This document shows, in pieces, positions 12-37,912 of a stretch of DNA of 64,000 nt. The position numbers were made by a program, and so were the translations under genes. Under the pieces are notes generated by a model. The model had not been told where the DNA came from and did not search any database. It worked only from the letters and a program-made list of their open reading frames with translations. The number at the start of each line of letters is the position of its first letter. Position 1 is the stretch's first letter. This stretch comes from an uncultured archaeon (GTDB taxonomy: Archaea; Aenigmatarchaeota; Aenigmatarchaeia; CG10238-14; SCSR01), in NCBI GenBank assembly GCA_964570195.1, contig CAZMWU010000001.1, positions 7,433 to 71,432 of the forward strand, written 5' to 3'.

Positions 12-2444
12 ATGAAAATAATCATTAACGATCCGTCACGAGTGCCCGAAATTCGCGATATGTTGCAAAAAGAAAAACTCGTAGATGACGTCTACGAAGC
101 AGATATACTATTCAAATACAGATTCATGGCCGATAAAGGTATTTCTGGATTCAAGCGATTCAGGGTTTCTGGTACGCAAACCAGAACAAAGACAGTAAAA
201 ACCGATATTACCATGGATGTCAATGAGATACAAGAAATGGAGAGTTTAGAAAACAGCAATTTAAAATACGTATCGATAGATATAGAAACTATATCCAATG
301 AAGGAGCACCAGATCCAAAAAAGGACATAATCGGAATAATCAGCATGTCTTTTCACCCAGATTATAATTCAGAAAAATCCCTAATTTTGGTATCAAAACC
401 ATCCATAAAAAACAGTAAAGATGTTAAATTTTTTTCAAATGAGAAGGAAATGTTAAAGGAATTTCTCAAGATATTGGAAAATTACGATCCTGATGTCATT
501 ATAGGTTACAACATAAATAATTTTGACTTACCATACATACTTTCACGATTACGGGAGAATGATTTGTCAACTATGTTAGGACGGTGTAATCAGAAACCGT
601 CAATCTCAAGAAAAATCGGGGCGTACTATAAAAATACAATAACTGGCAGAATAATAGCCGATGCTTACGACCTCATTAAAGAGTCTATAAGAAAAGGGAA
701 TTTACGCTTAAAAAGACTTGGTCTCGGTGATGTTTCACGTGAACTATTAAACGATCAGAAGATTGACATAGCTCATAGCGAGATATTTGGTCATTGGCAT
801 GGTGACGATAGTCAATTAACAAAGCTGATTAGTTATGCAAAGAAAGATTCTGAGCTTGCTTTAAGACTGATATTGGAAAAAGGTTTACTCGACAAATTTT
901 TTGAACTAAGCAAGGTATCTGGGTTACTTTTACAAGATTGTTTAGATGGCGGTGAAGCACAAAGAGTGGAAAATCTCTTACTAAGAGAGTTTAATAAAAA
1001 CGACTACGTGTTACCATGCAAACCGTCTGAAAGTACATATGGAAAACAAGATAACCAAGAGTTAAAAGGTGCTCTTGTGTTAGAACCGAAAATAGGGCTC
1101 CACACAGATACGACAGTTTATCTTGACTTTAAATCAATGTACCCGTCAATCTTTATAGCGTATAACATTTGCCCAACCACACTTGTTAAAGACAAGTCAA
1201 ATGCAGTTGAAACTATTAAAACACCATATGGCACCGAATTTGTTTCTAAGAGTGTAAGAAAAGGGATACTTCCCACTATACTAATGTACCTAATTCAGGA
1301 ACGAGATAAAGTAAGATACGAAGAAAGACGAAGTTCCGATAAAAATGTAAAACGTTTGCTCGAAGCAAAACAACTCGCATTGAAAATCATGACTAACGCA
1401 TTCTATGGATATACAGGATATCTTAGAGCTAGGCTATACGTTATTGACATCGCAAATACTATAACTGGATGTGGTAGGTTTCTAATTAACCAAACTAGAG
1501 ATATCATAGAAACCAAATCCGAGTACGAAGTCGTCTACGGCGACACAGACTCTATAATGGTTAAAGTTAAAACCAAAGATCTCGACACAGCATATGAAAC
1601 CGGTAGAAAGTTAGAATCTCTGGTCAATTCCGAACTTACAGGAATTGTACAAATGAAGATAGAAAAAGTATTCAAAACCCTATTAATTCTTTCGAAAAAA
1701 CGTTATGTTGGATTAAGTTATGAAAAGTCAAATGGCAATTGGAAAGAAGAAATGGTAATGAAGGGCATAGAGACTGTACGGAGGGATTGGTGCGATGCCA
1801 CAACAAAAATATTATTTGAGGTTCTTAATATCTTACTAAAGGAACAGAATCCGAAAAAGGCATTTGGATATGTCAAAGAATATTTAATGAATCTTGAAAA
1901 AAATGAAGTTTCAATCGAGGATTTGATTATAACAAAAAGCATTTCTAAATCTATAGCGGCGTATAAAGGAATTCAACCTCATGTCGAACTTGTTAAGAAA
2001 CTAAGAAAAAGAAATGGTGAGGCACCAGGCGTAGGCGATAGAGTGAGTTTTGTAATAGTTAAAGGAATGCAACTTCTTTCAGAAAGAGCAGAGGATCCCG
2101 ACTATGTTAAAAAAAACAAATTACAAATAGATGATAAATATTATGTTGAAAACCAGATACTACCACCTTTAGAAAGGGTCTTTGAAGTCATCGGTATAAG
2201 TAAAACAGAATTGCTTGGAATAGGCAGACAAACTCTTCTGAAGGAGATTTTTAAAAACGGCAATAAAACAAACGGAACTGTTTTGAAAGAGAGTCTAGAC
2301 TCATTTGATGGATTTCTATGTAAAAAATGCAACAAATTCTATAGAAGAGTTCCTTTAATCAATCAGTGTTTTGAGTGTGGCGGAGAAATATTATTTTCCT
2401 CAGATAAAAAGATGGCTCATATTGTACAATTAAAGGGTCAATAG
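12..2444 (+). CDS. polB: Family-B DNA polymerase. It is possibly 5'-truncated by the window edge; there is no in-frame stop upstream of position 12.
   Basis: Exo motifs DIETIS and YNINNFDLPYI; polymerase motifs KxxxNAFYGYTGY and YGDTDS; C-terminal Cys4 zinc ribbon CKKCN...CFECGG. Confidence 0.9.
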   Translation: MKIIINDPSRVPEIRDMLQKEKLVDDVYEADILFKYRFMADKGISGFKRFRVSGTQTRTKTVKTDITMDVNEIQEMESLENSNLKYVSIDIETISNEGAPDPKKDIIGIISMSFHPDYNSEKSLILVSKPSIKNSKDVKFFSNEKEMLKEFLKILENYDPDVIIGYNINNFDLPYILSRLRENDLSTMLGRCNQKPSISRKIGAYYKNTITGRIIADAYDLIKESIRKGNLRLKRLGLGDVSRELLNDQKIDIAHSEIFGHWHGDDSQLTKLISYAKKDSELALRLILEKGLLDKFFELSKVSGLLLQDCLDGGEAQRVENLLLREFNKNDYVLPCKPSESTYGKQDNQELKGALVLEPKIGLHTDTTVYLDFKSMYPSIFIAYNICPTTLVKDKSNAVETIKTPYGTEFVSKSVRKGILPTILMYLIQERDKVRYEERRSSDKNVKRLLEAKQLALKIMTNAFYGYTGYLRARLYVIDIANTITGCGRFLINQTRDIIETKSEYEVVYGDTDSIMVKVKTKDLDTAYETGRKLESLVNSELTGIVQMKIEKVFKTLLILSKKRYVGLSYEKSNGNWKEEMVMKGIETVRRDWCDATTKILFEVLNILLKEQNPKKAFGYVKEYLMNLEKNEVSIEDLIITKSISKSIAAYKGIQPHVELVKKLRKRNGEAPGVGDRVSFVIVKGMQLLSERAEDPDYVKKNKLQIDDKYYVENQILPPLERVFEVIGISKTELLGIGRQTLLKEIFKNGNKTNGTVLKESLDSFDGFLCKKCNKFYRRVPLINQCFECGGEILFSSDKKMAHIVQLKGQ

Positions 2445-3524
2445 TGATTTTTCCCCTACTATTAATTTAGTAGTTTTTGGAACTCTCTCTTCAAGATTTA
2501 AAATTTTTACTTGGCGACCTATTAAGCTGTCTGATAACCGTTTATTGCAATCTATGTGTACATTATCAAATATAATACAATTTTCTATTTCACCGCTCTT
2601 TATTATCGTTCCATCACCAATTGATGTATAAGGGCCTATATAAACTCCCTTTTCGATTTCGCAGTTCTTACCTATTACTACAGGGCCTCTTATTGTAGCC
2701 CCGCTTCTGACTGTCGTTTTCTCGTCTATGAACACATTCCCTATTATATACGCACCGTCTTCTACTGTACCTAAAATATTTGGTTTTATGTCGTGTAATA
2801 TAAGTCGATTTGCCTCTAATAAATCATCTGGTGTACCAGTGTCTTTCCACCAATCATCAACAAATACATGTTTTACTTCATGCCCATCTTCAATCATCTT
2901 TTGCAAAGCGTCAGTAATTTCCAATTCATTTCTTGCAGATGGAGTTAACTTTTCTATCACGTTGAATATCTTTTCATTTAAAAAATAGATGCCAGTAATG
3001 ACTAAATTACTTTTAGGTTCGCTGGGTTTTTCAATAAGCCTTTTAATTTTATCACCATCGAGCTCTACAACACCATATAACCTAGGGTCTTTTACTTTTG
3101 TAAGATGTATTAAAGCATCGTAATTATGTTCCAAAAAAAGATTCAGAGAATTTTTGATACCACCTTTTAAAAAGTTGTCACCAAGGTACAATACGAACTT
3201 ATCACCAGCAATGAACTGTTTCGATATTTTAACTGCGTGTGCTATTCCCAAAGGTTCAGGTTGTTCTATATATGTTATGTTTATACCATATCTGGAACCG
3301 TCACCAAGCAATTCCTTTATTCCTTCTTTCACAGGTCCCAAGACAATTCCCACATCTTTTATACCAGCTTCAATGATGTCTTCAATAGCGTATAAAATCA
3401 TGGGCTTATTCCCTAAAGGTAATACATGCTTATTTGTAGTATATGTTAAAGGTCGTAATCTTGTTCCGTGACCACCAGCTAATAATAATGCTTTCATTGT
3501 ACCATGCTCTAACATGCTAATCAA
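2430..3524 (-). CDS. Sugar-1-phosphate nucleotidyltransferase (glucose-1-phosphate thymidylyltransferase-like) with a C-terminal left-handed beta-helix domain. The real start is probably the internal ATG giving MKALLLAGG, near 3497.
   Basis: Motif LAGGHGTRLRPLT (GxGTRLxPLT); C-terminal hexapeptide repeats (IGxxxxIxxxxxIG pattern). Confidence 0.85.
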   Translation of the reverse strand: MISMLEHGTMKALLLAGGHGTRLRPLTYTTNKHVLPLGNKPMILYAIEDIIEAGIKDVGIVLGPVKEGIKELLGDGSRYGINITYIEQPEPLGIAHAVKISKQFIAGDKFVLYLGDNFLKGGIKNSLNLFLEHNYDALIHLTKVKDPRLYGVVELDGDKIKRLIEKPSEPKSNLVITGIYFLNEKIFNVIEKLTPSARNELEITDALQKMIEDGHEVKHVFVDDWWKDTGTPDDLLEANRLILHDIKPNILGTVEDGAYIIGNVFIDEKTTVRSGATIRGPVVIGKNCEIEKGVYIGPYTSIGDGTIIKSGEIENCIIFDNVHIDCNKRLSDSLIGRQVKILNLEERVPKTTKLIVGEKSLLTL

Positions 3525-3686: not shown

Positions 3687-4130
3687 CTAAACATTTTCAC
3701 CTAGAAATTCTATTATTTTTTCATCTATTCTGCATTCTGGCGAATTGTATCTTTTAAATTTATGAGTTCTGACCGCTTTAATACAATTTTCTAAATTGTC
3801 GATGGATTTACAATTAATTAAGTATCCAAGTCTATGCAATTCATTTGCTAAATCCGGGTTATGTACTATAGACGGATTTTCTAGACATATTAATTTCTTC
3901 TTATGTCCCAATACCTCAAAGATAGTACCTGCACCGTGATGTGATATTACAATATCAGCCTTTTTATAAAACTTATGAAGAGGGGCGTGAAACCTAAACC
4001 ATTTAATATTTCGAGGCCTATATTTACTTTCTCCTATCTGAGCGACAACTGGCTCTTTTAGTCTATGCGATATTTCGTCTATTTTTTTAATTAGCTCATC
4101 AAATTTCCATCCAGCGATTACAAATATCAT
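3687..4130 (-). CDS. Alg13-like glycosyltransferase catalytic subunit (GT28 C-terminal domain).
   Basis: About 150 aa with an HHGAGT motif; 4-bp overlap with the upstream Alg14-like gene. Confidence 0.55.
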   Translation of the reverse strand: MIFVIAGWKFDELIKKIDEISHRLKEPVVAQIGESKYRPRNIKWFRFHAPLHKFYKKADIVISHHGAGTIFEVLGHKKKLICLENPSIVHNPDLANELHRLGYLINCKSIDNLENCIKAVRTHKFKRYNSPECRIDEKIIEFLGENV

Positions 4131-4594
4131 AATAATCTCCCAGCATATACAGCTTTAGGATAAACTTTTTTTAACGGTTCCCATTGGACAAAAAATAAAT
4201 CTGCTATTTTGTATATCAACTTGCCTGATAGTGACGGGTTTCTAACTCTAGACCAACTTTCTATAAAAATAATTTTTTTACCCAGTAGCTTACCCAGATA
4301 ACAAAATGGTATTGGTACATTTGAACCAGGACTAACAATCGCATCTGGATTTTCTCTTAATAATATCATCAATGCCTTAAATAAAATTATAGGATAACTA
4401 CACAGAGTCCTAATATTTTTAGGACCTGTAAATGGCATACTAATGAATTTTACTCTATATCCTTTAAGCAAAGTTTTCGAAACATCTGTATAATGCGTTA
4501 CAAATACCAAATCGAATTTTGACTTTAACTTTTCGGCCAATAATAAACTTTGCGTTAGGTGTCCACCTCGTGTAGTTGCTATCATTATTTTCAT
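4127..4594 (-). CDS. Alg14-like membrane-anchoring subunit of an Alg13/14-type UDP-GlcNAc transferase.
   Basis: About 155 aa with a Rossmann-like N-terminus; ATGA-coupled to the Alg13-like gene. Confidence 0.5.
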   Translation of the reverse strand: MKIMIATTRGGHLTQSLLLAEKLKSKFDLVFVTHYTDVSKTLLKGYRVKFISMPFTGPKNIRTLCSYPIILFKALMILLRENPDAIVSPGSNVPIPFCYLGKLLGKKIIFIESWSRVRNPSLSGKLIYKIADLFFVQWEPLKKVYPKAVYAGRLL

Positions 4595-4662
4595 AAAGCA
4601 TCTGTTTTATCTATAACTTAAAAAGCCTTAAATAGTTCACACCTTTAATATTTTTTGATAGA

Positions 4663-5601
4663 ATGAAAAGAGTCGGTGTAATAGGGGCTGGTAAATGGGG
4701 AATGAACCATATCAGAATATATAAAACACTTCTTCATGAAGTTGAATTCGTTGGTATTTCAGACATTGACCAAGAAAAAAAGTCTATAGCAGATAAGCTC
4801 GAAATAGCATTTTTTCATGACTATAGCGATTTAGTTAAAAATGTTGATGCCGTAAGCATAGTAGCACCTACAAACATACATTACAAACTTGTTAGAGAGT
4901 GCCTGACAAAAAATACACATGTTTTAGTTGAAAAACCATTAGTCTTTACCTCTAAAGAGGCCGAAGAATTAGTGAAATTGGCTAAAGATAAGAGTCTGGT
5001 ATTACATGTAGGATATCTTTTTAGATTTAACCCAGTAGTACCAAAACTGAAAGAATTATTACCCTCAATAGGAGAAATAAGAGCCGTAAATGCCAGATAT
5101 ATACAACCGAATAAACAACGAAACGATTCAGGCGTAGTGTTTAATCTTTCCGTACATTTGGTAGATATTTTAAATTTCATTCTCCCTCAGAAACCAACAA
5201 AAGTTTTATGTAAAAAAACAAATAAACTCGACATTAATTTCGAAGATTCCGCAACTATTATTTTACGGTATGATAAATTTCATGCCGCATTAGAATTAAG
5301 TTGTGAGCATCCTGAAAAACAGCGTGACATGTTCATACTAGGAACTAAAGGGGCGTTATATGCAGATTTCAAAGAGCAAATTTTAATTAAATATACAGCT
5401 CCCCAGATATCTGGCGATGAATGGAAAAGTGAATTCATTTCAATTGAAAAAAAAGAGCCTCTTAGAGAAGAGATCATTAATTTCTTAAAGTCACTAGAAA
5501 ATGAAGAAGCACGTAAGTTAGGGGAAGAAGAAATTTATACAACACGTATATGTGAAAAAGCTCTAGAATCCGCAAACTCGGAACTGGAATTGGAAATATG
5601 A
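4663..5601 (+). CDS. Gfo/Idh/MocA-family NAD-dependent oxidoreductase (WbpB-like UDP-GlcNAc(A) 3-dehydrogenase candidate).
   Basis: N-terminal GVIGAGKWG Rossmann motif and EKP motif; first gene of an ATGA-coupled operon with an acetyltransferase and an aminotransferase. Confidence 0.8.
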   Translation: MKRVGVIGAGKWGMNHIRIYKTLLHEVEFVGISDIDQEKKSIADKLEIAFFHDYSDLVKNVDAVSIVAPTNIHYKLVRECLTKNTHVLVEKPLVFTSKEAEELVKLAKDKSLVLHVGYLFRFNPVVPKLKELLPSIGEIRAVNARYIQPNKQRNDSGVVFNLSVHLVDILNFILPQKPTKVLCKKTNKLDINFEDSATIILRYDKFHAALELSCEHPEKQRDMFILGTKGALYADFKEQILIKYTAPQISGDEWKSEFISIEKKEPLREEIINFLKSLENEEARKLGEEEIYTTRICEKALESANSELELEI

Positions 5602-6239
5602 ACAATTCAAAAATATATGAAAATGTAGAACTTGGTAAAAATGTAGAAATAGAAGATTTTGTTATAATAGGTAAACCACCAACAAGAAGTGTACCGAATC
5701 TCCAAAAAACTAAAATCGGCGATAATTCAATCATACGTTCTTTTACTATAATTTATGCTGGGAATAAGATAGGAGCGAACTTTAAAACAGGTAATGGTGT
5801 AGTAATAAGAGAAAGCAACGAAATAGGGGACAATGTCAGCATTGGTATAGGTAGTGAAATAGCATACAATGTTAAAATAGGAAATGATGTCAAGTTACAC
5901 TCTGATGTGCATGTGTTTGAAAATACCGTTATAGAGGATAATTGTAGAATCAATCCTGGTGTATATTTTTTAAATTCGAAATACCCCTATTCACCAGGTG
6001 AGAAAGAACGTCTGAAAGGATGCATAATTAAAAAAGGTGCTGTTATAGCAGCTAGAGCAATAATAATGCCAGGTGTGACAGTTGGAAGTTATTCTCTAGT
6101 CGGTGCAGGTTCCCTAGTTACAAAAGATATACCACCATTTAAAGTAGTCGTCGGGAGACCAGCAAAAATTATTAAAGATATCCGTGAAATAAAGTTTTCA
6201 GACGGATCTAGAGTATACAGTAATGTTCCGGATGGTTAA
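5598..6239 (+). CDS. Hexapeptide-repeat N-acetyltransferase (WbpD/PglD-like).
   Basis: Tandem [LIV]G hexapeptide repeats throughout the 213 aa; located between the dehydrogenase and the aminotransferase. Confidence 0.75.
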   Translation: MNNSKIYENVELGKNVEIEDFVIIGKPPTRSVPNLQKTKIGDNSIIRSFTIIYAGNKIGANFKTGNGVVIRESNEIGDNVSIGIGSEIAYNVKIGNDVKLHSDVHVFENTVIEDNCRINPGVYFLNSKYPYSPGEKERLKGCIIKKGAVIAARAIIMPGVTVGSYSLVGAGSLVTKDIPPFKVVVGRPAKIIKDIREIKFSDGSRVYSNVPDG

Positions 6240-7356
6240 AATGGAAGTACCGCTTGTTAATTTAAAAGCGCAATATTTGCGATTAAAAGTTGAAATTGAC
6301 CAAGCTATACAAGACGTTATTAACAGTTCTCAATTTTTGAGAGGAGATGCCCTAGAAGAATTCGAAAAGAACTTTGCAAACTTTTGCGGATCTAAATTTG
6401 CAGTTGGATGTAGTTCTGGTACAACTGCATTAGAACTAGCACTCCGTACAACAAAAATAAAACCTTATGATGAGGTAATAACAGTTCCAAATACGTTTAC
6501 AGCTACAGCAGCCTCTATTAGCCATGTAGGAGCTGTACCGAAATTTGTAGATATTGATGGAAAAACATTCAATATAGACGTCAATAAAATAGAAGATGCC
6601 ATTTCTACAAAAACTAAAGCAATTTTACCAGTTCATCTTTATGGTCAACCGTGTGACATGAAACAAATTAAAAGGATTGCAGATAACTACGATTTAATTA
6701 TTATCGAAGATTGCGCTCAAGCAAATGGAGCAGAGTATAATGGTAAACGTCTACCTATATCTGATATAGGGTGTTTCAGTTTTTTTCCAGCCAAAAATTT
6801 GGGTGCATTCGGAGATGCAGGATGCATAGTGACTAACAATGAGGATGTTGCTTCTGTAACTTCAATGCTTTTAGATCACGGACGGGCTAAAAACAAGAAA
6901 TATGAACATGATTTATTGGGATTCAATTACAGAATGGCAAATATACAAGCAGCAGTACTTAATGTGAAATTAAAATTTTTACACAGTTTTAATAAAAAAA
7001 GAAGAGAAAATGCAAAACTGTATAATGATCTTTTGTATAAATTAGACGGAATTGTAATTCCTTTTGAAGCAGAAAATTCAAAACACGTTTATTATGTATA
7101 TACTGTAAAAGTAAAGAAACGTGATGAACTTGCTACCTTTTTAAAGAATAACGGAATAACAACACAAATTTATTATCCAATTCCCTTGCATCTGCAATTA
7201 GCCTATAAAGGTCTAAATTACAAAAGAGGAGATTTTCCAATTTCGGAAAAAGTTTCCGAGGAGATCTTAAGCCTACCAATGTGTCCTGAATTGAAAGAAG
7301 ATCAAATCCGATATGTAGTAGACAAAATAAAAATGTTCTTTTCAGACAATGTGTAG
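6223..7356 (+). CDS. DegT/DnrJ/EryC1/StrS-family PLP-dependent sugar aminotransferase (WbpE-like).
   Basis: Motifs DIGCFSFFPAKNLGAFGDAG (PLP lysine region) and LHLQ; 377 aa. Confidence 0.85.
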   Translation: MFRMVKMEVPLVNLKAQYLRLKVEIDQAIQDVINSSQFLRGDALEEFEKNFANFCGSKFAVGCSSGTTALELALRTTKIKPYDEVITVPNTFTATAASISHVGAVPKFVDIDGKTFNIDVNKIEDAISTKTKAILPVHLYGQPCDMKQIKRIADNYDLIIIEDCAQANGAEYNGKRLPISDIGCFSFFPAKNLGAFGDAGCIVTNNEDVASVTSMLLDHGRAKNKKYEHDLLGFNYRMANIQAAVLNVKLKFLHSFNKKRRENAKLYNDLLYKLDGIVIPFEAENSKHVYYVYTVKVKKRDELATFLKNNGITTQIYYPIPLHLQLAYKGLNYKRGDFPISEKVSEEILSLPMCPELKEDQIRYVVDKIKMFFSDNV

Positions 7357-7364
7357 CAATAGCT

Positions 7365-7376
7365 TTTTATATATAA
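7365..7376 (+). promoter_or_regulatory. Archaeal TATA box (ttttatatataa) about 27-36 bp upstream of the 7402 start.
   Basis: AT-rich TATA-like octamer at the canonical archaeal distance from the start. Confidence 0.45.
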
Positions 7377-7401
7377 TTAACCTCAAGTATTACGTGATGT
7401 T

Positions 7402-26608: not shown

Positions 26609-26992
26609 ATGTATAAAACAACAAAAATTTCACCAGTCTTTACCGATGAAAGAGGTACTATTAGTGATATACTTGAAACCACAATAAATCATATAGGTCT
26701 GATAACTTCGAAAAAAGGATCTATTAGAGGTAAACATTACCATAAAAAATCTACACAATACATCTTTGTTATTAGCGGAAAATTAGAGTCTTTTACAAAA
26801 GATATGAATGTAGAAAATTCGAAGGTAGAATCACATATACTGGTTCCAGGTGATTTGGAAACAGTATCGCCAATGTTAGCTCACGCCCATAAGGCGCTTG
26901 AAGATTCAGTTTTTCTTAACTTCACTACAGAATCACGAAAAGAGAGTGGTTATGAAGACGATACAATTAGAGTAGAGATGAATTTAGAATGA
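26609..26992 (+). CDS. Small cupin-fold protein (FdtA/WxcM-like sugar 3,4-ketoisomerase or RmlC-like epimerase candidate).
   Basis: 127 aa; GKHYHKK...YIFVISG cupin motif; ATGA-coupled to the downstream epimerase/dehydratase. Confidence 0.4.
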   Translation: MYKTTKISPVFTDERGTISDILETTINHIGLITSKKGSIRGKHYHKKSTQYIFVISGKLESFTKDMNVENSKVESHILVPGDLETVSPMLAHAHKALEDSVFLNFTTESRKESGYEDDTIRVEMNLE

Positions 26993-30172: not shown

Positions 30173-31174
30173 GTGGATAAATTAAGGTTTGCTATAGTCG
30201 GCTGCGGTAAGATGGGAAGCAGGAGAATAAATGTACTTAAAAACCATCCTGAGGCGAAAATAGTTGCTTTAGTAGACACAAATGAAGAAAAGGTTAAAAT
30301 TTTATCTACCGAACTAGGATGCGAATATTATGTGGATTATAAGGAAGCTTTTAAAAGAACTGATATAGACTGTGTTATTGTAGCCACTCCAAATAAGTTT
30401 CATGCTCCAATTACTATTGCTGGCTTGGAAAGCGGTAAACACGTGTGGTGCGAAAAACCTCTTGCTAGAAACCCTGTCGAAGCTAGGTCTATGGTTGACG
30501 CGGCAATAAGAACCAAAAATTTCCTTAAAACAGGGTCCAATATGAGATATTTCCCAAATTTTGTAAAGGCCAAAGAATTGGTTGACGGTCTTGGTATAGG
30601 TAGTTTGCTCTTTTTAAGAGGGTGGATAGGAAATAATGGACAACAACTAGAAGGCTGGTTTAAGGATATAGAACTCACTGGCGGTGGAACATATCTTGAC
30701 AATGGTTGTCATATGTTAGATCTTGTGAGATGGTTTCTTGGGGATGCTGAAAACTGTATAGGGCATGCATGGTCTAAACACTGGTCCAGTATGATAAACT
30801 CTGAAGATAATGCATTTGGTGTATACAAGTTTGCCAACGGGGGTAGCGCATTTGTCCACTCATCGTGGACAGACTGGAATGGATATGCTTATATAGAGAT
30901 TTATGGTACAACAGGGTTTATAATCGTCGATAGCAGAGGTCAAAACAATAAAACAATTTTTGGTGACAATAAAGGCGTTATACACGAATTTGATTTCGGC
31001 AATCTTCCTGTACAATCTTACAAACTAGAAGTCGACGACTATATCAAAGCGATAAAAGAAGGTAGACAACCAGTGGCTACAGGATACGATGGATTGCGTG
31101 CTGTGCAGATGGCTTGTGCGGTTTACGAGTCATCTAAAAATGACGGGAAAAGCGTAAAAATAGATTCTTTATAG
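30173..31174 (+). CDS. Gfo/Idh/MocA-family oxidoreductase.
   Basis: IVGCGKMG Rossmann motif, EKP motif and the C-terminal alpha/beta domain. Confidence 0.8.
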   Translation: MDKLRFAIVGCGKMGSRRINVLKNHPEAKIVALVDTNEEKVKILSTELGCEYYVDYKEAFKRTDIDCVIVATPNKFHAPITIAGLESGKHVWCEKPLARNPVEARSMVDAAIRTKNFLKTGSNMRYFPNFVKAKELVDGLGIGSLLFLRGWIGNNGQQLEGWFKDIELTGGGTYLDNGCHMLDLVRWFLGDAENCIGHAWSKHWSSMINSEDNAFGVYKFANGGSAFVHSSWTDWNGYAYIEIYGTTGFIIVDSRGQNNKTIFGDNKGVIHEFDFGNLPVQSYKLEVDDYIKAIKEGRQPVATGYDGLRAVQMACAVYESSKNDGKSVKIDSL

Positions 31175-31187: not shown

Positions 31188-31799
31188 GTGAAACAAATGA
31201 AAGAAACCCCTATTTTCGATTGGGATTCTGAATGGATGACTTTTAAAGGACTTAATTTTTTTGGCAGGTTACTTTATAATGATATTGAAAAAACTTTAAA
31301 CTCATTTTTGAAACAAAATAATTTAAATAAAAATATTACTGTTCTTGATTTCGGTTGCGGAAAAGGCACTACACTAAATATTTTCAGAAAACTAGGTTAC
31401 AGGAACTCGATCGGTACAGACACAAGCAAATTTGCTTTAGAGTTGTGTAACAAGCTTTATGGATTCAAACTTGGCAAAGACGTTTTTCTGTCTAATGACA
31501 AGCATGTCAATCAAAAATTTGATCTTGTTATAGCAGATGGGTTAATGGAACTATATAAAAACATAGCAAACATATCCAAAGAAATCAGCAAAAAAACGAG
31601 AAAATATATTGTTCTTATAGAACCTAACAGGTTTTCATTTATGCATAATCTAAAAAGACTATTGGGGAGAAACTCTAAAATGTATTCACATCGTCTAGGT
31701 GAAATAAAATATATCTTCAAAAATATTGGATTTGAGACTATTCGCGTAGGAAATTGTAACTTTAGTGAACATTGGGTAATATTTCTTGAAAGGAAATGA
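31188..31799 (+). CDS. Class I SAM-dependent methyltransferase.
   Basis: VLDFGCGKGTT motif I. Confidence 0.55.
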   Translation: MKQMKETPIFDWDSEWMTFKGLNFFGRLLYNDIEKTLNSFLKQNNLNKNITVLDFGCGKGTTLNIFRKLGYRNSIGTDTSKFALELCNKLYGFKLGKDVFLSNDKHVNQKFDLVIADGLMELYKNIANISKEISKKTRKYIVLIEPNRFSFMHNLKRLLGRNSKMYSHRLGEIKYIFKNIGFETIRVGNCNFSEHWVIFLERK

Positions 31800-32895
31800 T
31801 TTAATGAAAATAGCTCTAGTCAATAATAGTCATCCATTCTCTGGAATGGGTAAATACGCATTTAATCTGTTAAATTCTTACATGCGACAAAAAAAATCTG
31901 TAGAAATGTTTTATCTTGAAACTCCGGATAATAAAATCAAATCCCTAAACGGGGTTAATAAAATCCAAAGAAATTTAGGTTCGATTGAATTGAATAAAAC
32001 CCTTTTACCTTATTTTATCTTCCCCAAAAAAATACCAGAAGGTTACAATGTCTACCACGCTACAAATCAGTTTCTTGCGAGACTGGCGTTATACAAACCT
32101 CGTTGCGTGATAACGCATCATGATATACGACCAATTATATTGTCACATGATCTTAAAATGTGGATGGTCGGCAGAGTTTTAAGATATTTGTTGAAATCGT
32201 ATAAAAAAGCACATAAAATAATAGCAATAGCAGATGTTATAAAGGAGGATTTACTCAAGTTAAAAATCATTCCCGAAGAAAAAATTACTATTGTATATCA
32301 CGGATACGATAAAGGTTTATACAAACCCATGTCAAAAAAATCAGCTAGGAAAAAATTGGGATTGCCACAAGATATCAAGATATTATTGAATGTAGGTGCA
32401 GAAGAACCAATTAAGAATATACCTCTTTTGTTGGAGGCTACACGGATAATTCAAAAAGTTGAAAAAGTCTTGTTGGTAAGAGTTGGTGGAGGTATTACTT
32501 CTGGTGGTTATTGGAAAACGTCAGAATCCCTTAAAACAGGGATTGACATTAAAGAGTTTAAGAATGTATCAGAAAAGGATATGCCACTCATCTATAATGC
32601 GGCTGATGTTTTCATCGCACCATATACATATGATGAAGGTTTCATGTTTCCACCTTTAGAATCCATGGCGTGCGGTGTACCAACTGTGCTATCTAATCTT
32701 AAAACATTTGAACAGGGAAGTATAAGGGCGCCAAACGATCCACAGGGACTTGCTGAAGTAGTTTTAAAAATATTAAACAATTCTTTATTACATAGGAAAC
32801 TATCTAGAAAGGCTCTTAAAATGGCTGAAAGATTTTCAATGGAAACCCACCTTAAAAATACTTATCGGGTTTATGAAGAGGTAAGTAAGAAGTGA
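31786..32895 (+). CDS. GT4-family glycosyltransferase.
   Basis: ESMACGVPTVLSN motif. Confidence 0.7.
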   Translation: MKGNDLMKIALVNNSHPFSGMGKYAFNLLNSYMRQKKSVEMFYLETPDNKIKSLNGVNKIQRNLGSIELNKTLLPYFIFPKKIPEGYNVYHATNQFLARLALYKPRCVITHHDIRPIILSHDLKMWMVGRVLRYLLKSYKKAHKIIAIADVIKEDLLKLKIIPEEKITIVYHGYDKGLYKPMSKKSARKKLGLPQDIKILLNVGAEEPIKNIPLLLEATRIIQKVEKVLLVRVGGGITSGGYWKTSESLKTGIDIKEFKNVSEKDMPLIYNAADVFIAPYTYDEGFMFPPLESMACGVPTVLSNLKTFEQGSIRAPNDPQGLAEVVLKILNNSLLHRKLSRKALKMAERFSMETHLKNTYRVYEEVSKK

Positions 32896-32899: not shown

Positions 32900-34003
32900 A
32901 TGATATCAATAGGAGAGCCAGCACTTGATAATGAAGAATTGGAGAATGTAACTAATGCAATCAAAACAAATTGGATATCAGGTCGTGGCGAATACATTTC
33001 TGAATTTGAAGAAAAGTTCAGTAGATTCTGTAATGCAAGTTTTGGTGTTGCCACTTGTAATGGAACTGCTGCAATACACCTCGCACTAGCAAGTATTGGT
33101 ATTAAAAGCGGAGACGAAGTTATCACTCCAACATTTACTACTGTAGCATCAACCAATCCAATACTCCAATGTGGAGGGAGACCTATGTTTATAGACTCTG
33201 ACAATTCGACATGGAATATCGACCCGAATAAAATAGAAGAAAAAATAACTAAAGCCACAAAGGCCATAATGGTTGTGCATCTTTATGGACACCCGTGCGA
33301 CATGGATCCTATCATGAAAATAGCAAACGATCATAATCTTTTAGTAATAGAAGATGCGGCCGAAGCTCACGGAGCTGAGTATAAAGGAAAGAAAGTTGGA
33401 ACTATAGGAGATATAGGGTGTTTCTCCTTCTTTTCCAATAAGATAATTACTACCGGTGAAGGTGGTATGATAATCACGAATAATAAAGAATTGGCAGAGA
33501 CAGCCGCAAATTTAAGAGACCTTGCCTATGGAAAAGGTGATAAGAAATTTCACCATGAGAAAATCGGTTTTAATTACAGAATGACAAACTTACAAGCTGC
33601 TATAGGGGTTGCCCAGATGGATAAAATAGAAAAATTCATTGATATAAGGAGAAAAAATGCAAAAATATACGGTTCTTTACTGAAAGACATCGAGGGTATA
33701 ACACTGCCACCGGAAATGCCATGGGCTAAAAATGTCTATTGGATGTATACTATATTAATTGAAAAATTGTTTGGTCTCGACAGAGACAATCTGATTAAAT
33801 TATTGAAAGAAATGGGGATAGATACAAGACCAACTTTTTATCCTGTACATTTACAACCAATATACCAACAATTATTCGGTAGCCAAAAACTGCCTGTGGC
33901 AGAAGAACTGAGTATCAAGGGTATAAATTTGCCCTCTGGCAATACCTTAACAAAAGAACAAATAGAGTTTGTTTGTGAAAGTATAAAACAATTTAAAAAT
34001 TAA
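32900..34003 (+). CDS. DegT/DnrJ/EryC1/StrS-family PLP-dependent sugar aminotransferase.
   Basis: DIGCFSFFSNKIITTGEGG motif; paralog of 6223-7356. Confidence 0.85.
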   Translation: MISIGEPALDNEELENVTNAIKTNWISGRGEYISEFEEKFSRFCNASFGVATCNGTAAIHLALASIGIKSGDEVITPTFTTVASTNPILQCGGRPMFIDSDNSTWNIDPNKIEEKITKATKAIMVVHLYGHPCDMDPIMKIANDHNLLVIEDAAEAHGAEYKGKKVGTIGDIGCFSFFSNKIITTGEGGMIITNNKELAETAANLRDLAYGKGDKKFHHEKIGFNYRMTNLQAAIGVAQMDKIEKFIDIRRKNAKIYGSLLKDIEGITLPPEMPWAKNVYWMYTILIEKLFGLDRDNLIKLLKEMGIDTRPTFYPVHLQPIYQQLFGSQKLPVAEELSIKGINLPSGNTLTKEQIEFVCESIKQFKN

Positions 34004-34007: not shown

Positions 34008-34928
34008 TTAGAACAGTCTTCTTAATGCATATTCTAGTGCAAATCTTGCAGCAAAACTAATTCCTTTATATCCCAGTTCTGTAGGTAATCTGCCGTCGTT
34101 CAAGGCACTTCTTATTTGGTCACCATTAGAAAAAACGATAAATCCAACATGTTCCCATGCGTCTCTTGCTTTTGTCCATTCTCCTCCTTCACGAAACCAT
34201 TCAGAATCTTGTCTAATGCGAGTTTCAAATACGATATCCGTATTACCAAAATTGCTCGCATCTGTTACAATACCAACTAGTTCTTTATTTACAATATCTT
34301 TTGGTTTAACATCTGTTTCTTCATACAGTTCTCTATCCACACCTTTAAACAAACTACGTGTACCTATGCAATAAGATGGAGTCTTTAGTCGCTTAATTAT
34401 ATAATCAAGATTTCTACTTTCCCAATTCGGTATAGCGTCTTCGAAACCAGCAACTAGATGCAAAAACAATGGTAATCCCATCATTTTACCATCTTTTCTG
34501 TATGCGGCTCTTATTGGTAGAGCTAGTTTACTATCACTTGTTATTAATATGTTAGCTGGGCCGACAGGCAGTGAGAAAAAAGCTTTGGGATCACCAAAGT
34601 ATCTTTTACCAAATTCCATTTTTCTACTAACTTCATAACTGTCTTTTGGTATATCATACCAGCTTACAATCCCTAATTGTAACTTTAATTTCCCATCTTC
34701 TCGGATTTGATGGCCTCTATAAGTAACTTTAAGATCACCTGGCGTCATTTGTCCTACAGTCAATAATTCAACAAGTCTATTTGACCAGATATCAAACGAT
34801 AAAACTGGCGACTGTTTTCTAACACACGTAACTTCATCTCTAGAATATGCTCTCAAATCTTCCCATCTGCGTTCAGGGAGCCAGATATATGTTTTTTGCA
34901 ATAATCCTTTTTCTTCCAGTTCGAACAT
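34008..34928 (-). CDS. Hypothetical protein (306 aa). It is Arg/Trp-richer than its neighbours.
   Basis: ORF only; the composition differs from the Lys/Ile/Asn-rich island genes. Confidence 0.3.
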   Translation of the reverse strand: MFELEEKGLLQKTYIWLPERRWEDLRAYSRDEVTCVRKQSPVLSFDIWSNRLVELLTVGQMTPGDLKVTYRGHQIREDGKLKLQLGIVSWYDIPKDSYEVSRKMEFGKRYFGDPKAFFSLPVGPANILITSDSKLALPIRAAYRKDGKMMGLPLFLHLVAGFEDAIPNWESRNLDYIIKRLKTPSYCIGTRSLFKGVDRELYEETDVKPKDIVNKELVGIVTDASNFGNTDIVFETRIRQDSEWFREGGEWTKARDAWEHVGFIVFSNGDQIRSALNDGRLPTELGYKGISFAARFALEYALRRLF

Positions 34929-35044: not shown

Positions 35045-35773
35045 ATGAATTTTGATGAAATACGAGAGATAGCGAAAGCAGCAATAACTCCAGAATACGG
35101 TGCATATTACATTGCTAGTAACCTCAACTGGCTGAGATACGAAAAACAACTAAATGAACTAGTTAGATTCATACCGAAAAATTCCAAGATTTTGGATATA
35201 GGATGTGGATTAGGGATGACAGTTTCTATGATAAAAGCAAGTGTACCTGATTCAGAAGTTATAGGCATAGACATAACTCAAAAATCTACATGGGAAGCTT
35301 ATGAAAAACAATTTAATGTAAAATATTTTGTTGACGACGCGCTAAACCTACAATTTAATGATGAGGAATTTGACATCGTGGTTTCATTTGGTGTTATAGA
35401 ACATGTAACAGATGATAAAAAGTTTATCAAAGAAAACCTGAGGATTTTGAAAAGTGGAGGAATGGGATTTATTTTAAACATACCTAATAGGTATTCAATG
35501 AACGAATATCTGGCCAAGAGATTAGGTCTTAATTCACATGATATAAGATATAATATGCAACAAATTCAACATATTCTACATTCAGCCAGAATAAAAAATT
35601 TCGTTATAAAGAGAAGATTTCTAATACCAGCCCAAGTAAATAGAATCAACTATTCTTTAGGAGAACTTTTTAATAAGTTCTATATTGAATTAGACTTTCT
35701 TGATAGAGTGTTAAGTAAATTACCAACTGGAGTTTTTTCACAAGTATTTGATGTATTTTACAAGAAGGATTAA
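35045..35773 (+). CDS. Class I SAM-dependent methyltransferase.
   Basis: ILDIGCGLGMT motif I; immediately upstream of and abutting aglB. Confidence 0.65.
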   Translation: MNFDEIREIAKAAITPEYGAYYIASNLNWLRYEKQLNELVRFIPKNSKILDIGCGLGMTVSMIKASVPDSEVIGIDITQKSTWEAYEKQFNVKYFVDDALNLQFNDEEFDIVVSFGVIEHVTDDKKFIKENLRILKSGGMGFILNIPNRYSMNEYLAKRLGLNSHDIRYNMQQIQHILHSARIKNFVIKRRFLIPAQVNRINYSLGELFNKFYIELDFLDRVLSKLPTGVFSQVFDVFYKKD

Positions 35774-37912
35774 ATGTTAGAGAATTACAACAATTTGAAA
35801 AGTGTACTTCCCACGATTATCAAAACTATATTAATATTACTGGGTCTAGCTTCTATAATTTTTCTAGGAGTTTATATAAGAAGTAGTACCCTTAGCTCAC
35901 CAACTGTTTTAGATTATGATCCTTGGTATTTTTATCGATATGCAGAAGATATTGTTGAGAATGGATATAAACTATTTAAATGGGACGGATTGACTTACTA
36001 TCCACCAGGACGCCCTACAGATATTTACTTAGGATGGTCTTATACAATTGCAATTTTTTATAAAATATTACATTCAATTTTTGATAACATAACTCTAATG
36101 CAAGTAGCTAAATTAGCACCATTAATAATGGTAGGTATAACACCTGTATTTGCCTTCTTATTAGGTAGATTACTTTCAAACTCCTTAGGAGGGTTATTAA
36201 CAGCTTTATTTTCTGTGATTGCACCCACTTTCATAGGTGTATCTATGGCAGGTTATTCAGATTCTGATGTTGTTACAGTCTTTTACATGATTTTATCCAC
36301 ATTAACGATAATTGCAACAATAAGATACTCAAAAAATATACTGCTCTCAATACCCCTTTACTTTTTATCCGTCATTAGCGTTTTGTTATTTACTTTTAGT
36401 TGGAGTGCAGGTTGGCTACCTTTAATTTTGTTCATGGCATTTATACCTTCATTCATAACCTTCAGGATTTTTGAAGAAGTGATTCATCAAAGAAAATTAA
36501 AAATCAACATTAAAAGTGCACTGGCAGATACGAAACATGTGATAATTCCTCTTCTTATCATATTTCTGATAACAAACATTGTAGGATATTATCTCGGTTT
36601 TAGAACAATGTTCCACTCTTTACTAGGTGGATTAGCATTCGCTGGAATAGGTGGAGAAAGATTAATAGTCAACATTTCTGTTGCAGAACTCCAGACAGTC
36701 AATGTATTCACCAAAGAAGGGTTCCTGGCCATTGCACAACGTGTTGGTATGCTGTCTACAATAATGGCGCTTATAGGGATACCATTATTAGCGATTTATA
36801 AACTTTTTAGAAAGGAAAAAATCAATTTCGTTGAGATATTTTTATTTTTATGGACACTAGTCTCGTTTTACTTTATAATCAAAGGCATAAGGTTCTCACT
36901 ACTGTTCTCCATTTCTGCTTCACTTTCTACGGGTTATGTAATTGGTAATTTATATAACTACCTTAGGCATGTAAATATTTTGATATTTTCTACAATATTT
37001 GCAGTATTGGGCGTTTTTATTTTCGTAGCAATATCGAATTCAATACAAGTTGGATTTGCATCTGGCGGATTGGTAATAGGTCAAAATTGGTATGATGCAT
37101 TAGATTGGCTTAAACAAAATGCTGATAAAGATTCTTTGGTTGCAACGTGGTGGGATCCAGGTCATATCATTACAGGTTATACAGGATTAAAAGTTCACGC
37201 AGATGGGGCGCATTGTGGTGATGCATGTATACCATACAATCATAACACAAGGATAAGAGATATGGGTAGACTGATGACAACAGACAACGAAACAGAATCT
37301 ATAGAAATAATCCAAAAATATACACATTTGACTGATGAACAATGTGATACAATAAGAAAAACGTTTGGAGATATAGTTCCAAAAGACGCGTGTAAAGACG
37401 TCACAGAAACATATATTTTGGCAACCAGCGATTTGATAGGTAAATATTTCTGGATGAGTTGCTTTGGTAGTTTTGATATGAACTTATGGAAAGAAACTAA
37501 AGGTGACGAATGGAGATGCGATGGAAAAAATTTTGCTCAAGTACCGTTTTCTAATTTCGATCGACAAGGTTTACCGATATATTCGCAAGGTGGTCTTACG
37601 ATTACGCTGCTTCAGAACGGTACCGATTTATTAGCTGTACTCAATGCACCTGGGCAAGGCGTCCGTAATAGAGTAGTAAGTGACATAGTGTTTTATCAAA
37701 ATGGTCAGAGAATGCACTCCAAATCCTACTTTAATAATTCGGTAGATGGTATGGTCTGGATAGACCCAAGCTTTAGACTAATTTTATTCATGGATCCTAC
37801 AATAAGGGATTCTGTATTTACTAAAATGTTCTTTTTTGACGGTGAAGGTCTAGAAAACTTTGAGCTTATGTACCAGAACACAGAAGTCAAAATATATAAA
37901 GCGAAAATTTAG
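35774..37912 (+). CDS. aglB: AglB/STT3 oligosaccharyltransferase.
   Basis: 712 aa; N-terminal multi-TM domain with DxD-type loops; C-terminal soluble domain with WWDPGH, a variant of the WWDYG signature. Confidence 0.8.
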   Translation: MLENYNNLKSVLPTIIKTILILLGLASIIFLGVYIRSSTLSSPTVLDYDPWYFYRYAEDIVENGYKLFKWDGLTYYPPGRPTDIYLGWSYTIAIFYKILHSIFDNITLMQVAKLAPLIMVGITPVFAFLLGRLLSNSLGGLLTALFSVIAPTFIGVSMAGYSDSDVVTVFYMILSTLTIIATIRYSKNILLSIPLYFLSVISVLLFTFSWSAGWLPLILFMAFIPSFITFRIFEEVIHQRKLKINIKSALADTKHVIIPLLIIFLITNIVGYYLGFRTMFHSLLGGLAFAGIGGERLIVNISVAELQTVNVFTKEGFLAIAQRVGMLSTIMALIGIPLLAIYKLFRKEKINFVEIFLFLWTLVSFYFIIKGIRFSLLFSISASLSTGYVIGNLYNYLRHVNILIFSTIFAVLGVFIFVAISNSIQVGFASGGLVIGQNWYDALDWLKQNADKDSLVATWWDPGHIITGYTGLKVHADGAHCGDACIPYNHNTRIRDMGRLMTTDNETESIEIIQKYTHLTDEQCDTIRKTFGDIVPKDACKDVTETYILATSDLIGKYFWMSCFGSFDMNLWKETKGDEWRCDGKNFAQVPFSNFDRQGLPIYSQGGLTITLLQNGTDLLAVLNAPGQGVRNRVVSDIVFYQNGQRMHSKSYFNNSVDGMVWIDPSFRLILFMDPTIRDSVFTKMFFFDGEGLENFELMYQNTEVKIYKAKI

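Follow-up and report, generated by a model that had tools for sequence, protein, structure and literature searches.

Introduction

What does a long, AT-rich series of sugar-related genes make in an archaeon of the Aenigmatarchaeota, and how has such a series been assembled? We have addressed this question in a stretch of 64,000 nucleotides from an uncultured archaeon (positions 7,433 to 71,432 of contig CAZMWU010000001.1, assembly GCA_964570195.1; hereafter the window), in which an island at 2430-37912 lies between polB, the gene for a family B DNA polymerase, and the genes for a histone, an RPA-like protein and RadA. On the basis of family assignments, comparison with related genomes and gene trees, the locus is very probably an N-glycosylation (surface-sugar) gene cluster of this DPANN archaeon and a flexible island of the replacement type, in which cassettes appear to be swapped at a fixed site.

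Gene content of the island

We delimited the interval by PolB (12-2444) on the left and the histone/RPA/RadA genes (38199-40403) on the right, and counted open reading frames (ORFs) of at least 100 amino acids. The 34 non-overlapping ORFs at 2430-37912 give a coding density of about 95%, and Pfam and NCBIfam have placed 32 of them in glycan-related families (nucleotide-sugar, glycosyltransferase, flippase, methyltransferase or related). The transferases comprise three glycosyltransferases of the GT1/GT4 type, one GT2, one GT75-like protein, two GT-C enzymes of the PMT_2 type, one AglH-like enzyme and a split Alg13/Alg14 pair. Six methyltransferase genes are present, i.e., four stand-alone class I genes (starting at 11080, 12183, 31188 and 35045), one of the FkbM type (24991) and one C-methyltransferase (23733), and heavily methylated sugars are therefore implied. 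This richness is common to at least one relative, JACOWB, whose island has four class I methyltransferases.

The product of the last gene, AglB, carries the DxD and WWDxG motifs of STT3/AglB enzymes as DYDPW (DYD) and WWDPGH (WWDPG), and its PDB matches are eukaryotic STT3 and Archaeoglobus AglB, with the alignment spanning the WWD region; an initiator, cytoplasmic glycosyltransferases and a flippase are clustered beside aglB. The initial annotation of this DNA had described a cluster for sugar synthesis, transfer, flipping and N-glycan attachment between polB and the histone/radA genes that ends in aglB, and the family assignments agree with it, each of the AglH-like (PF00953, E = 1e-29), Wzx-like and AglB members that it named being identified. 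Its count of more than 35 genes has been lowered to 34, and its seven methyltransferases to six: the FkbM and C-methyltransferase genes stand, and the class I genes number four, not five.

A fixed site with mosaic content

PolB homologues 58-76% identical to that of the window have been found at 11 loci in a species-representative genome collection, all of them in Aenigmatarchaeota or unnamed archaeal metagenome-assembled genomes, and the variability described below is that between family-level relatives. Five relatives have polB and aglB on one contig, and in these the interval, measured from where polB ends to where aglB ends, is 30.8 kb in JACOWB, 30.3 kb in JACPAE, 31.2 kb in JACPJT, 51.8 kb in JACPJU and 60.1 kb in CAYJQI, compared with 35.5 kb in the window; for two further relatives, only the side of aglB is represented. 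Stretches of 20-30 kb have been read in each of the five and consist almost entirely of glycan genes, and sugar-pathway genes lie downstream of polB in nine of the 11 Aenigmatarchaeota loci, the other two ending too soon. At the right end, histone, rpa and radA are found next or nearby after aglB in six relatives, and a gene for 77-84 amino acids stands directly after aglB in all seven relatives examined (L013, L015, L017, L018, L019, L033 and L034). In JACPJU and CAYJQI, whose contigs of 786 and 791 kb we infer to be near-whole genomes, the locus takes up about 6.6-7.6% of the contig. Because five relatives carry a polB-aglB interval of 30-60 kb here, the locus is not an inserted island but one of the replacement type: it occupies the same position between the same conserved genes and serves the same function with differing gene sets.

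The content is a mosaic of segments that are shared with different relatives. The left arm, six genes from Alg13 to the short dehydrogenase, is 60-78% identical in JACOWB; in JACPAE four of the six reach 60-70%, and the remaining two no more than 35-36%. GT1a and Wzx are common to JACOWB at 61-64% identity, and the pair of AglH and the second GT-C enzyme to JACOWB, JACPAE and JACPJT. In the right arm, the cassette at 23733-29971 (C-methyltransferase to a P-loop protein) is common to JACPAE at 48-73%, and GT1c, DegT2 and the class I methyltransferase MT11b are common to CAYJQI, JACPJU and JAIYGB at 51-59%. On these identities the right arm of the window is a hybrid of two arm types that are found separately in the relatives. 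Two blocks, 8361-11733 and 13962-18355 (seven genes), have no homologue in any stretch of the relatives that we have read.

Bootstrapped neighbour-joining trees (200 replicates) were constructed for island proteins and for the flanks, the latter as a concatenate of six right-flank proteins (1600 columns) and as PolB. In the concatenate the window is grouped with JAIYGB in 200/200 replicates, and in the AglB tree in 0/200, where JAIYGB, JACPJU and CAYJQI are grouped in 200/200. In the PolB tree JACPAE, JACPJU and CAYJVM are grouped in 200/200, and in the short dehydrogenase tree in 1/200; the latter unites the window, JACPAE and JACOWB in 163/200. The identity table gives a similar picture: JAIYGB, the closest by flanks, reaches only 51-59% identity in the arm, and JACPAE, the most distant, has a cassette with identities up to 73%. 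Because the trees and the identity table conflict with the flanks, the island genes, including aglB, have a history different from that of the flanks. The discordance of AglB and the short dehydrogenase bears out the initial annotation in its view of a horizontally exchanged surface-glycan island, and conserved gene content and order in the polB-histone intervals of relatives, the outcome that it had named as speaking against this view, has not been seen.

We consider that whole arms or cassettes, aglB included, would be exchanged within the family by recombination, with conserved genes in the flanks or inside the locus serving as anchors, and that occasional cassettes would be recruited from more distant organisms. 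For one window-specific gene, PMT2a (13962), the best matches among 1.84 billion representatives are 41-51% identical (41-44% for full-length ones), and the four named organisms among the top ten matches come from four phyla (Haloplanus, Methanobacterium, Paceibacteria and Promethearchaeota).

The GC content below that of the flanks and the genes unique to this genome might suggest an integrated mobile element or an island derived from a virus. This reading is effectively refuted: the Pfam scan of the 34 ORFs revealed neither integrase nor transposase nor phage genes, direct or inverted repeats beyond chance are absent from the flanks, and the sole tRNA gene (43857-43944) is located 6 kb outside the locus, so that integrase, tRNA target and repeats are all lacking. 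Also against it stand the 30-60 kb interval at this site in five relatives and the sugar genes after polB in nine of 11 loci. A viral origin of window-specific genes has been rejected likewise, because a viral contig collection contains no relatives of two of them.

Base composition

The island has a guanine-plus-cytosine (GC) content of 31.7%, against 37.7% in the rest of the window. By sub-segment the values are 32.5% (2.4-8.3 kb), 28.3% (8.3-20 kb), 33.6% (20-37.9 kb) and 38.0% (37.9-64 kb), and the sliding profile runs at 0.265-0.305 around 8-20 kb, 0.31-0.36 around 20-38 kb and 0.35-0.42 in the right half; polB itself has 34.6%. The highest values in the window (0.38-0.42), which inflate the contrast with the island, belong to 47814-61054, a run of genes without Pfam match around a T2SSE-type secretion ATPase (52410-54650); this is probably the pilus-like region named in the initial annotation.

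At the level of codons, the mean GC content at third positions (GC3) is 0.25 for the 34 island genes and 0.341 for 32 flank genes. It is low both in the 23 island genes with counterparts in relatives (0.253; against the flanks p = 3e-7, Mann-Whitney) and in the 11 without (0.239; p = 4e-5). The AAT, ATA, AAA, TTA and TTT codons are 1.3-1.6 times commoner in the island; synonymous usage and amino-acid usage are both modestly shifted toward AT, and Phe, Ile, Asn, Lys and Tyr (FINKY) residues are overrepresented throughout the island. The additional dip at 8-20 kb comes largely from amino-acid composition, i.e., from first and second codon positions (GC1/GC2) in membrane-rich proteins abundant in Ile, Lys, Asn and Phe. 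Across relatives, orthologous island genes have a GC3 of about 0.22-0.52 (AglB up to 0.57), and the host flanks 0.20-0.66; this narrow range across hosts fits a shared, AT-leaning cassette pool, and an expression-linked bias is also compatible with it.

The initial annotation had spoken of an ultra-AT-rich island with long runs of AAT and ATA codons. The codon enrichment has been measured as above and the island is AT-richer than its flanks, but "ultra" is adequate only for about 8.3-20 kb. Uniform GC across the window, which had been named beforehand as the outcome speaking against an island, was seen neither in the profile nor in the GC3 tests. Concerning AT-richness as a signature of exchange, the dip is real, but on its own it is no marker of foreign genes: since GC3 is the same in the shared and the unique genes of the island, we have dropped low GC as a gene-by-gene rule for foreign origin.

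Several points weigh against our interpretation of the locus, and some of them are just what would be expected from vertical inheritance with differential loss and fast divergence, the AT-richness then coming from low expression, from the amino-acid make-up of membrane proteins and, the genome being small, from mutation pressure toward AT. The GC3 values of shared and unique island genes are indistinguishable (p = 0.35). The deepest dip coincides with multi-pass membrane proteins and with GC1/GC2 shifts, FINKY residues are enriched over the whole island, and mobility genes were not found. Among the relatives, JACPAE and JACPJT show a strong dip; JACOWB and two genomes of low GC, CAYJQI and JAIYGB, show little or none. 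Low GC3 may therefore come partly from expression level or amino-acid composition, not from exchange. The trees are neighbour-joining trees of 6-8 taxa with orthologues taken from tblastn segments, and the representative library searched with PMT2a is clustered at 50% identity and could conceal closer relatives. Only the JACOWB and JACPJT islands have been read end to end; about 8 kb of the JACPAE interval and 30-40 kb of those of CAYJQI and JACPJU lie outside the stretches read, to which "absent" refers throughout. Nothing at least 90% identical to six looked-up island proteins was found among about 15 billion sequences, so there is no conspecific genome for comparison. On the functional side, every enzymatic step is assigned from family membership, often below equivalog cutoffs. 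Vertical inheritance is nevertheless unlikely, for it is contradicted by the strongly supported conflicts between island and flank trees, by two arm types distributed against the flank phylogeny, by the matches of PMT2a in other phyla, and by a nearest relative in the flanks that is poorly similar in the arm when the farthest one, JACPAE, shares a cassette of six to seven genes.

Another explanation for the low-GC core (8.3-20 kb) would be a chimera of metagenome assembly that has brought in DNA of another organism. The core has 28% GC and holds the seven genes without counterpart in the family, and the distance in dinucleotide signature is highest at 8-12 kb and 18-22 kb. We judge such a chimera very improbable, because the family-typical GT1a (64%) and Wzx (61%) are interleaved with the unique blocks inside the core, both sides of each block run into syntenic family genes, and low GC3 extends into the conserved arms. 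A remnant of a family gene is also present at a junction: the gap of 449 bp at 11734-12182, the largest non-coding gap of the island, holds a short ORF (11866-12075) that matches the C-terminus of a 239-amino-acid JACOWB gene, intact there, which precedes a PAPS_reduct gene. Judging from this remnant, the gap is a rearrangement scar at a cassette junction.

Predicted pathway

Taking the family assignments together, we propose the following route. The AglH-like enzyme would start a glycan on a dolichol-type carrier, and the split Alg13/Alg14 pair would add the second sugar, in a reaction of either the chitobiose or the EpsE/F type, both of which are known possibilities for archaeal pairs of this kind (bioRxiv 10.1101/2021.01.19.427365). 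The three GT1-type enzymes would extend the glycan with the products of three sub-pathways that neighbour each other: one that resembles WbpA/B/D/E and would yield a 2,3-diacetamido sugar or the corresponding uronic acid; a route with RmlA, dehydratase, cupin, reductase, C-methyltransferase and FkbM enzymes to a methylated deoxyhexose; and a second set of oxidoreductase, aminotransferase and methyltransferase. Wzx would then flip the lipid-linked glycan, and AglB would transfer it to Asn of surface proteins. The trio of GT2, flippase-like protein and GT-C enzyme (16600/15658/13962), together with the second GT-C enzyme, would use dolichol-phosphate sugars as donors for further additions on the outer face.

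It has to be considered whether the locus mainly makes another glycoconjugate (O-linked glycan, glycolipid or lipoglycan, or exopolysaccharide), with aglB a neighbour by chance. The two PMT_2-type GT-C enzymes belong to families that include protein O-mannosyltransferases and the lipid-modifying ArnT, 34 genes exceed the needs of one short N-glycan, and JACOWB has further glycan genes beyond radA. We regard this as rather unlikely, because aglB is the constant right end in all seven relatives and co-varies with the adjacent arm type, and because an AglH-like initiator with Alg13/14 and Wzx makes up the canonical lipid-linked oligosaccharide route; furthermore, no Wzy-type polymerase or chain-length regulator was detected among the island ORFs by the Pfam scan.

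Comparison with known systems

The N-glycosylation assignment can be compared with the aglB-anchored clusters of Haloferax, which vary in composition and have laterally transferred aglB (PMC5867893, Shalev et al. 2018; review PMC11407970). As in the agl cluster of Haloferax volcanii, aglB stands at the edge of glycosyltransferases, sugar-modifying enzymes, a flippase and methyltransferases whose composition varies, and the AglB phylogeny is at odds with housekeeping markers, implying lateral transfer. Unlike it, the cluster belongs to a DPANN archaeon, is larger (34 genes; 30-60 kb across relatives) and has an AglH-type initiator with split Alg13/Alg14 in place of AglJ. No enzyme of the window has been demonstrated to be orthologous to a characterised Agl protein, and all NCBIfam Agl matches are under cutoff.

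Replacement flexible genomic islands have been described as loci for exposed glycans that are exchanged by homologous recombination and lack mobility genes (PMC4033161, López-Pérez et al. 2014), the cell-wall island of Haloquadratum walsbyi being one of them (PMC4535781). The present locus resembles them in its constant site and glycan theme, its differing genes, its lack of mobility genes and its exchange, seemingly via conserved flanks; those islands were delimited by comparing strains within a species and by their under-recruitment in metagenomes, whereas family-level relatives have been compared here. Bacterial O-antigen and capsule loci also lie between conserved flanking genes, such as galF-gnd in E. 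coli and dexB-aliA in pneumococci. They share with the window a low-GC cassette locus between conserved genes, Wzx-dependent lipid-linked assembly and recombination in the flanks; the present locus differs from them in having neither Wzy nor a chain-length regulator, and in ending with an oligosaccharyltransferase, whose targets are proteins, instead of an O-antigen ligase.

Two parts of the pathway have counterparts of their own. The WbpA/B/D/E route makes UDP-2,3-diacetamido-2,3-dideoxy (uronic) sugars. Four adjacent genes of fitting families at 4663-8307 (oxidoreductase, hexapeptide acetyltransferase, DegT aminotransferase and nucleoside diphosphate (NDP)-sugar dehydrogenase) are similar to it, but their scores are under equivalog cutoffs and the dehydrogenase is short (301 amino acids), lacking the C-terminal domain. 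For the oxidoreductase, the top NCBIfam match is the family of archaeal UDP-GlcNAc 3-dehydrogenases. Diacetamido sugars occur in Methanococcus N-glycans (PMC11407970). For the outer face, AglD, AglR and AglS of Haloferax form a three-component system that uses a dolichol-phosphate sugar donor (PMC5867893), and Agl22 and Agl23 of Haloarcula hispanica are cited for dolichol-phosphate-sugar glycosylation on the outer face (PMC11182771). In the window, genes for a GT2 enzyme resembling polyprenyl-phosphate glycosyltransferases, a flippase-like protein and a GT-C enzyme stand side by side and would be the analogue of such a system. The flippase-like protein, however, is of the MprF flippase-domain family and AglR of the Wzx-like family, and only weak NCBIfam matches, under cutoff, were obtained to AglJ, Dol-P-hexose transferase and Agl23. 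This trio is absent from every relative stretch read.

Sulfatase-fold gene and the phosphonate context of its homologues

The gene at 9945-11078 encodes a protein of the sulfatase fold, which PF00884 and sulfatases in the PDB match at the level of the fold, mainly in the C-terminal half. The motif [CS]xPxR, from which the catalytic formylglycine is made in sulfatases, is absent from this protein and from seven homologues, and DGxRxD, PYT (Thr47) and SDHG are invariant in all of them; the enzyme is probably a phosphoryl or phosphonyl transferase or hydrolase.

Homologues of the preceding phosphodiesterase-family gene (8361), 29% identical, are paired with the sulfatase-fold family in seven metagenome contigs. 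In four metagenome contigs, sulfatase-fold homologues (48-53% identical and preceded by a phosphodiesterase-family gene) adjoin a fusion of phosphoenolpyruvate (PEP) mutase with a cytidylyltransferase; three of the four also have phosphonopyruvate decarboxylase (L023 at 4851-11912, L027 and L030), and the short L024 has PEP mutase alone. A context of PEP mutase and decarboxylase is a signature of phosphonate-decorated glycans (PMC8942020). In the 64-kb window, tblastn found no PEP mutase.

The sulfatase-fold gene and the methyltransferase gene at 11080 are also adjacent in L022, an unassigned, unrelated contig of 25% GC, where their closest relatives are 69% and 70% identical. Each L022 copy has one in-frame stop (3484-3486 and 4607-4609), a TAA at a Glu and a TAG at a Trp. 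An alternative genetic code has been rejected, because the two stops differ in both codon and aligned residue, and the copies look like pseudogenes or the results of point mutations or sequencing errors.

Significance of the locus

Variable surface loci of this kind are well known, and the locus does not represent a new type of system. Since frameworks for aglB-anchored clusters and replacement islands already exist, it extends them to a new phylum and changes neither; we have found no description of such a locus in Aenigmatarchaeota in the literature. DPANN archaea, whose genomes are very small, live in attachment to other cells, and the genes that they retain are therefore informative. A locus of 30-60 kb that is rebuilt by exchange with aglB inside it suggests strong diversifying selection on glycans in the lineage. 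The pressures behind this diversity are likely to be viruses or host recognition, and the diversity itself would probably matter for virus evasion or host contact. For practical purposes, the polB and radA flanks provide anchors for recovering and comparing the locus from metagenomes.

A more far-reaching combined reading, which we regard as a long shot, would have two elements. A single recombination-swappable glycan locus including aglB, amounting to about 4-8% of the genome in episymbiont-sized Aenigmatarchaeota (largest contigs about 0.79 Mb), would be the main determinant of host or virus specificity; and its cassettes would come from an AT-rich, cross-phylum pool, in which the genes at 8361-11733 (two alkaline-phosphatase-superfamily enzymes and a methyltransferase; relatives of the pair lie in phosphonate-glycan clusters elsewhere) might put a host- or environment-derived phosphonate or phosphoester group on the N-glycan without a PEP mutase of the archaeon's own.

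Features of the locus and its flanks

Table 1. Genes of the polB-radA interval, with family evidence and identity to counterparts in relatives.
Position	Strand	Predicted product	Evidence
12..2444	+	Family B DNA polymerase (polB), conserved left flank	Pfam DNA_pol_B E = 4e-116
2430..3524	-	RmlA-long, long-form glucose-1-phosphate thymidylyltransferase	NCBIfam TIGR01208 442 bits (cutoff 320)
3687..4130	-	Alg13-like subunit (GT28 C-terminal domain) of split glycosyltransferase	Pfam Glyco_tran_28_C E = 1e-14
4127..4594	-	Alg14-like membrane-anchoring subunit	Pfam Alg14 E = 1e-19; 64% JACOWB, JACPAE
4663..5601	+	GFO/IDH/MocA oxidoreductase, UDP-GlcNAc 3-dehydrogenase-like (WbpB-like)	NCBIfam NF040723 E = 2.5e-69, under curated cutoff; 67% JACOWB
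5598..6239	+	Hexapeptide-repeat sugar N-acetyltransferase (WbpD-like)	Pfam Hexapep E = 6e-28; 78% JACOWB
6223..7356	+	DegT/DnrJ/EryC1 sugar aminotransferase (WbpE-like)	Pfam E = 1e-122; 68-70% JACOWB, JACPAE
7402..8307	+	Short nucleotide-sugar dehydrogenase, 301 aa, without C-terminal domain	NCBIfam TIGR03026 227 bits (cutoff 190)
8361..9773	+	Alkaline-phosphatase-superfamily enzyme (type I phosphodiesterase family); starts window-specific block 1	Pfam Phosphodiest E = 3e-41
9945..11078	-	Sulfatase-fold enzyme	Pfam Sulfatase E = 2e-26; GC 26%
11080..11733	-	Class I methyltransferase, lowest-GC gene (24.8%)	Pfam Methyltransf_31 E = 4e-6
11866..12075	-	Gene remnant, 69-aa ORF	tblastx 67% over 43 aa and 48% over 23 aa
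12183..12716	-	Class I methyltransferase	Pfam Methyltransf_11 E = 3e-14
12806..13957	+	GT1/GT4-type glycosyltransferase (GT1a)	Pfam Glycos_transf_1 E = 6e-42; 64% JACOWB
13962..15593	-	GT-C glycosyltransferase (PMT_2/GT39-like, about 11 membrane helices; PMT2a); block 2	Pfam PMT_2 E = 2e-7
15658..16593	+	Flippase-like membrane protein (MprF flippase-domain family)	Pfam LPG_synthase_TM E = 4e-45; NCBIfam TIGR00374 133 bits (cutoff 43)
16600..17295	-	GT2, polyprenyl-phosphate glycosyltransferase-like	Pfam Glycos_transf_2 E = 3e-17
17303..18355	-	GT75/RGP-like protein	Pfam RGP E = 4e-17
18447..19985	+	Wzx-type oligosaccharide flippase, about 16 hydrophobic segments	Pfam Polysacc_synt/MatE, weak
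19989..21005	-	AglH-like polyprenyl-phosphate N-acetylhexosamine (HexNAc)-1-phosphate transferase, initiating enzyme	Pfam Glycos_transf_4
21026..22636	-	Second GT-C enzyme (PMT_2 with STT3-N similarity, no WWDxG domain)	Pfam PMT_2 E = 9e-16, STT3 E = 7e-12
22633..23601	-	NAD-dependent sugar epimerase/reductase	Pfam Epimerase E = 3e-34; at most 29% in relatives, no close counterpart
23733..24986	+	Sugar C-methyltransferase	Pfam Methyltransf_13, Methyltransf_14 E = 1e-45; 73% JACPAE
24991..25806	-	FkbM-family methyltransferase	Pfam Methyltransf_21 E = 4e-22; NCBIfam TIGR01444 over cutoff; 56% JACPAE
25811..26548	-	Short-chain dehydrogenase/reductase	Pfam adh_short E = 3e-56; 55% JACPAE
26609..26992	+	Cupin (FdtA/WxcM-like sugar isomerase or epimerase fold)	Pfam Cupin_1, FdtA weak; 62% JACPAE
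26989..27924	+	NDP-sugar 4,6-dehydratase/epimerase	Pfam Epimerase E = 6e-44; 66% JACPAE
27954..29066	-	GT1/GT4-type glycosyltransferase	Pfam Glycos_transf_1 E = 9e-29; 48-51% JACPAE, Ga0213870
29093..29971	-	Conserved protein of unknown function, P-loop (GKSST), weak HprK-kinase similarity	NCBIfam HprK-related E = 2e-6; 61-68% in three relatives
30173..31174	+	Second GFO/IDH/MocA oxidoreductase	Pfam E = 4e-30; at most 25% in relatives, no close counterpart
31188..31799	+	Class I methyltransferase	Pfam Methyltransf_23 E = 2e-9; at most 28% in relatives, no close counterpart
31786..32895	+	GT1/GT4-type glycosyltransferase (GT1c)	Pfam E = 2e-21; 52-57% CAYJQI, JACPJU, JAIYGB, Ga0213870
32900..34003	+	Second DegT-family sugar aminotransferase (DegT2)	Pfam E = 6e-130; 51-53% CAYJQI, JACPJU, JAIYGB
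34008..34928	-	Window-specific protein of unknown function	Nudix-like RELYEET stretch (read by eye from sequence)
35045..35773	+	Class I methyltransferase (MT11b), directly upstream of aglB	Pfam Methyltransf_11 E = 2e-19
35774..37912	+	AglB/STT3 oligosaccharyltransferase, right end of exchangeable unit	Pfam STT3 E = 3e-25
37919..38167	+	Small membrane protein, 82 aa	ORF
38199..40403	+	Histone, RPA-like and RadA genes, conserved right flank	Pfam Rep_fac-A_C, Rad51; histone ORF

In the left arm, RmlA-long is only 50% identical to the copies of JACOWB and JACPJT, which are placed elsewhere in those islands, and the Alg13-like gene is 60% identical in JACOWB and JACPAE, where it comes directly after polB. 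Pfam matches only the N-terminal and central domains of the dehydrogenase at 7402-8307; since the JACOWB copy also has 301 amino acids and four other relatives are 58-70% identical over 282-284 residues, this short form seems to be conserved. The contig with the closest PolB (JAHLMT010000001.1, L001; 76%) stops about 4 kb downstream of polB, and this end fits, as weak evidence, assembly breakage inside a strain-variable locus.

In the core, the methyltransferase at 12183 is 47% identical to a JACOWB counterpart found on the opposite side of the GT1 gene. The NCBIfam matches of the GT2 enzyme (16600) to AglJ, PgfS, ArnC and Dol-P-hexose transferase are all under cutoff. The GT75/RGP-like protein matches PDB 7YUA/7XPR, deposited as "transglycosylase", with E = 6e-43, and plant UDP-arabinopyranose mutase marginally. 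Homologues of Wzx are named oligosaccharide flippase, and its identity is 54% in JACPJT. The AglH-like gene, 65-69% identical in JACOWB, JACPAE and JACPJT, always adjoins the second GT-C gene (21026), whose product has a weak, sub-cutoff Agl23 match and is 45-68% identical in four relatives; PDB sequence searches gave nothing for either PMT_2-type enzyme (13962 and 21026).

In the right arm, the LegB-like and dTDP-glucose dehydratase matches of the protein at 26989-27924 are under cutoff. The P-loop protein has 292 amino acids as called, and its orthologues have 324-332; homology runs for 28 in-frame codons upstream (29972-30055) in which there is no ATG, GTG or TTG. Judging from this homology, the gene probably starts about 28 codons further upstream, and either a non-canonical start is used or the N-terminus has been truncated. 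For the protein at 34008-34928 we found no Pfam match, no PDB match and no homologue in the relative stretches read. MT11b is 56-59% identical and has the same position in CAYJQI, JACPJU and JAIYGB.

On the right flank, RadA is followed in the window by a RIO kinase and ribosomal proteins S15 and S3Ae, and no Rfam match was found anywhere in the 64 kb. In relatives, the surroundings of aglB and radA also accommodate other genes. In JACPJT (L019 12367-14691), aglB is separated from the histone gene by genes for S-adenosylmethionine synthetase and a DNA methylase. A cluster of RHS/YD-repeat toxin genes comes directly after aglB in Ga0213870 (L033 12381-22133), a second sugar cluster with a C-methyltransferase after radA in JACOWB (L013 14633-20120), and DndB-like and Vsr genes further downstream of aglB-radA in JACPAE (L015 18789-21389). 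An identical RadA is present in a groundwater sequencing run. In the RadA cluster at 90% identity, two members (P0187 and P0192) have 786 amino acids, not 316, which suggests an intein or another insertion in some relatives.

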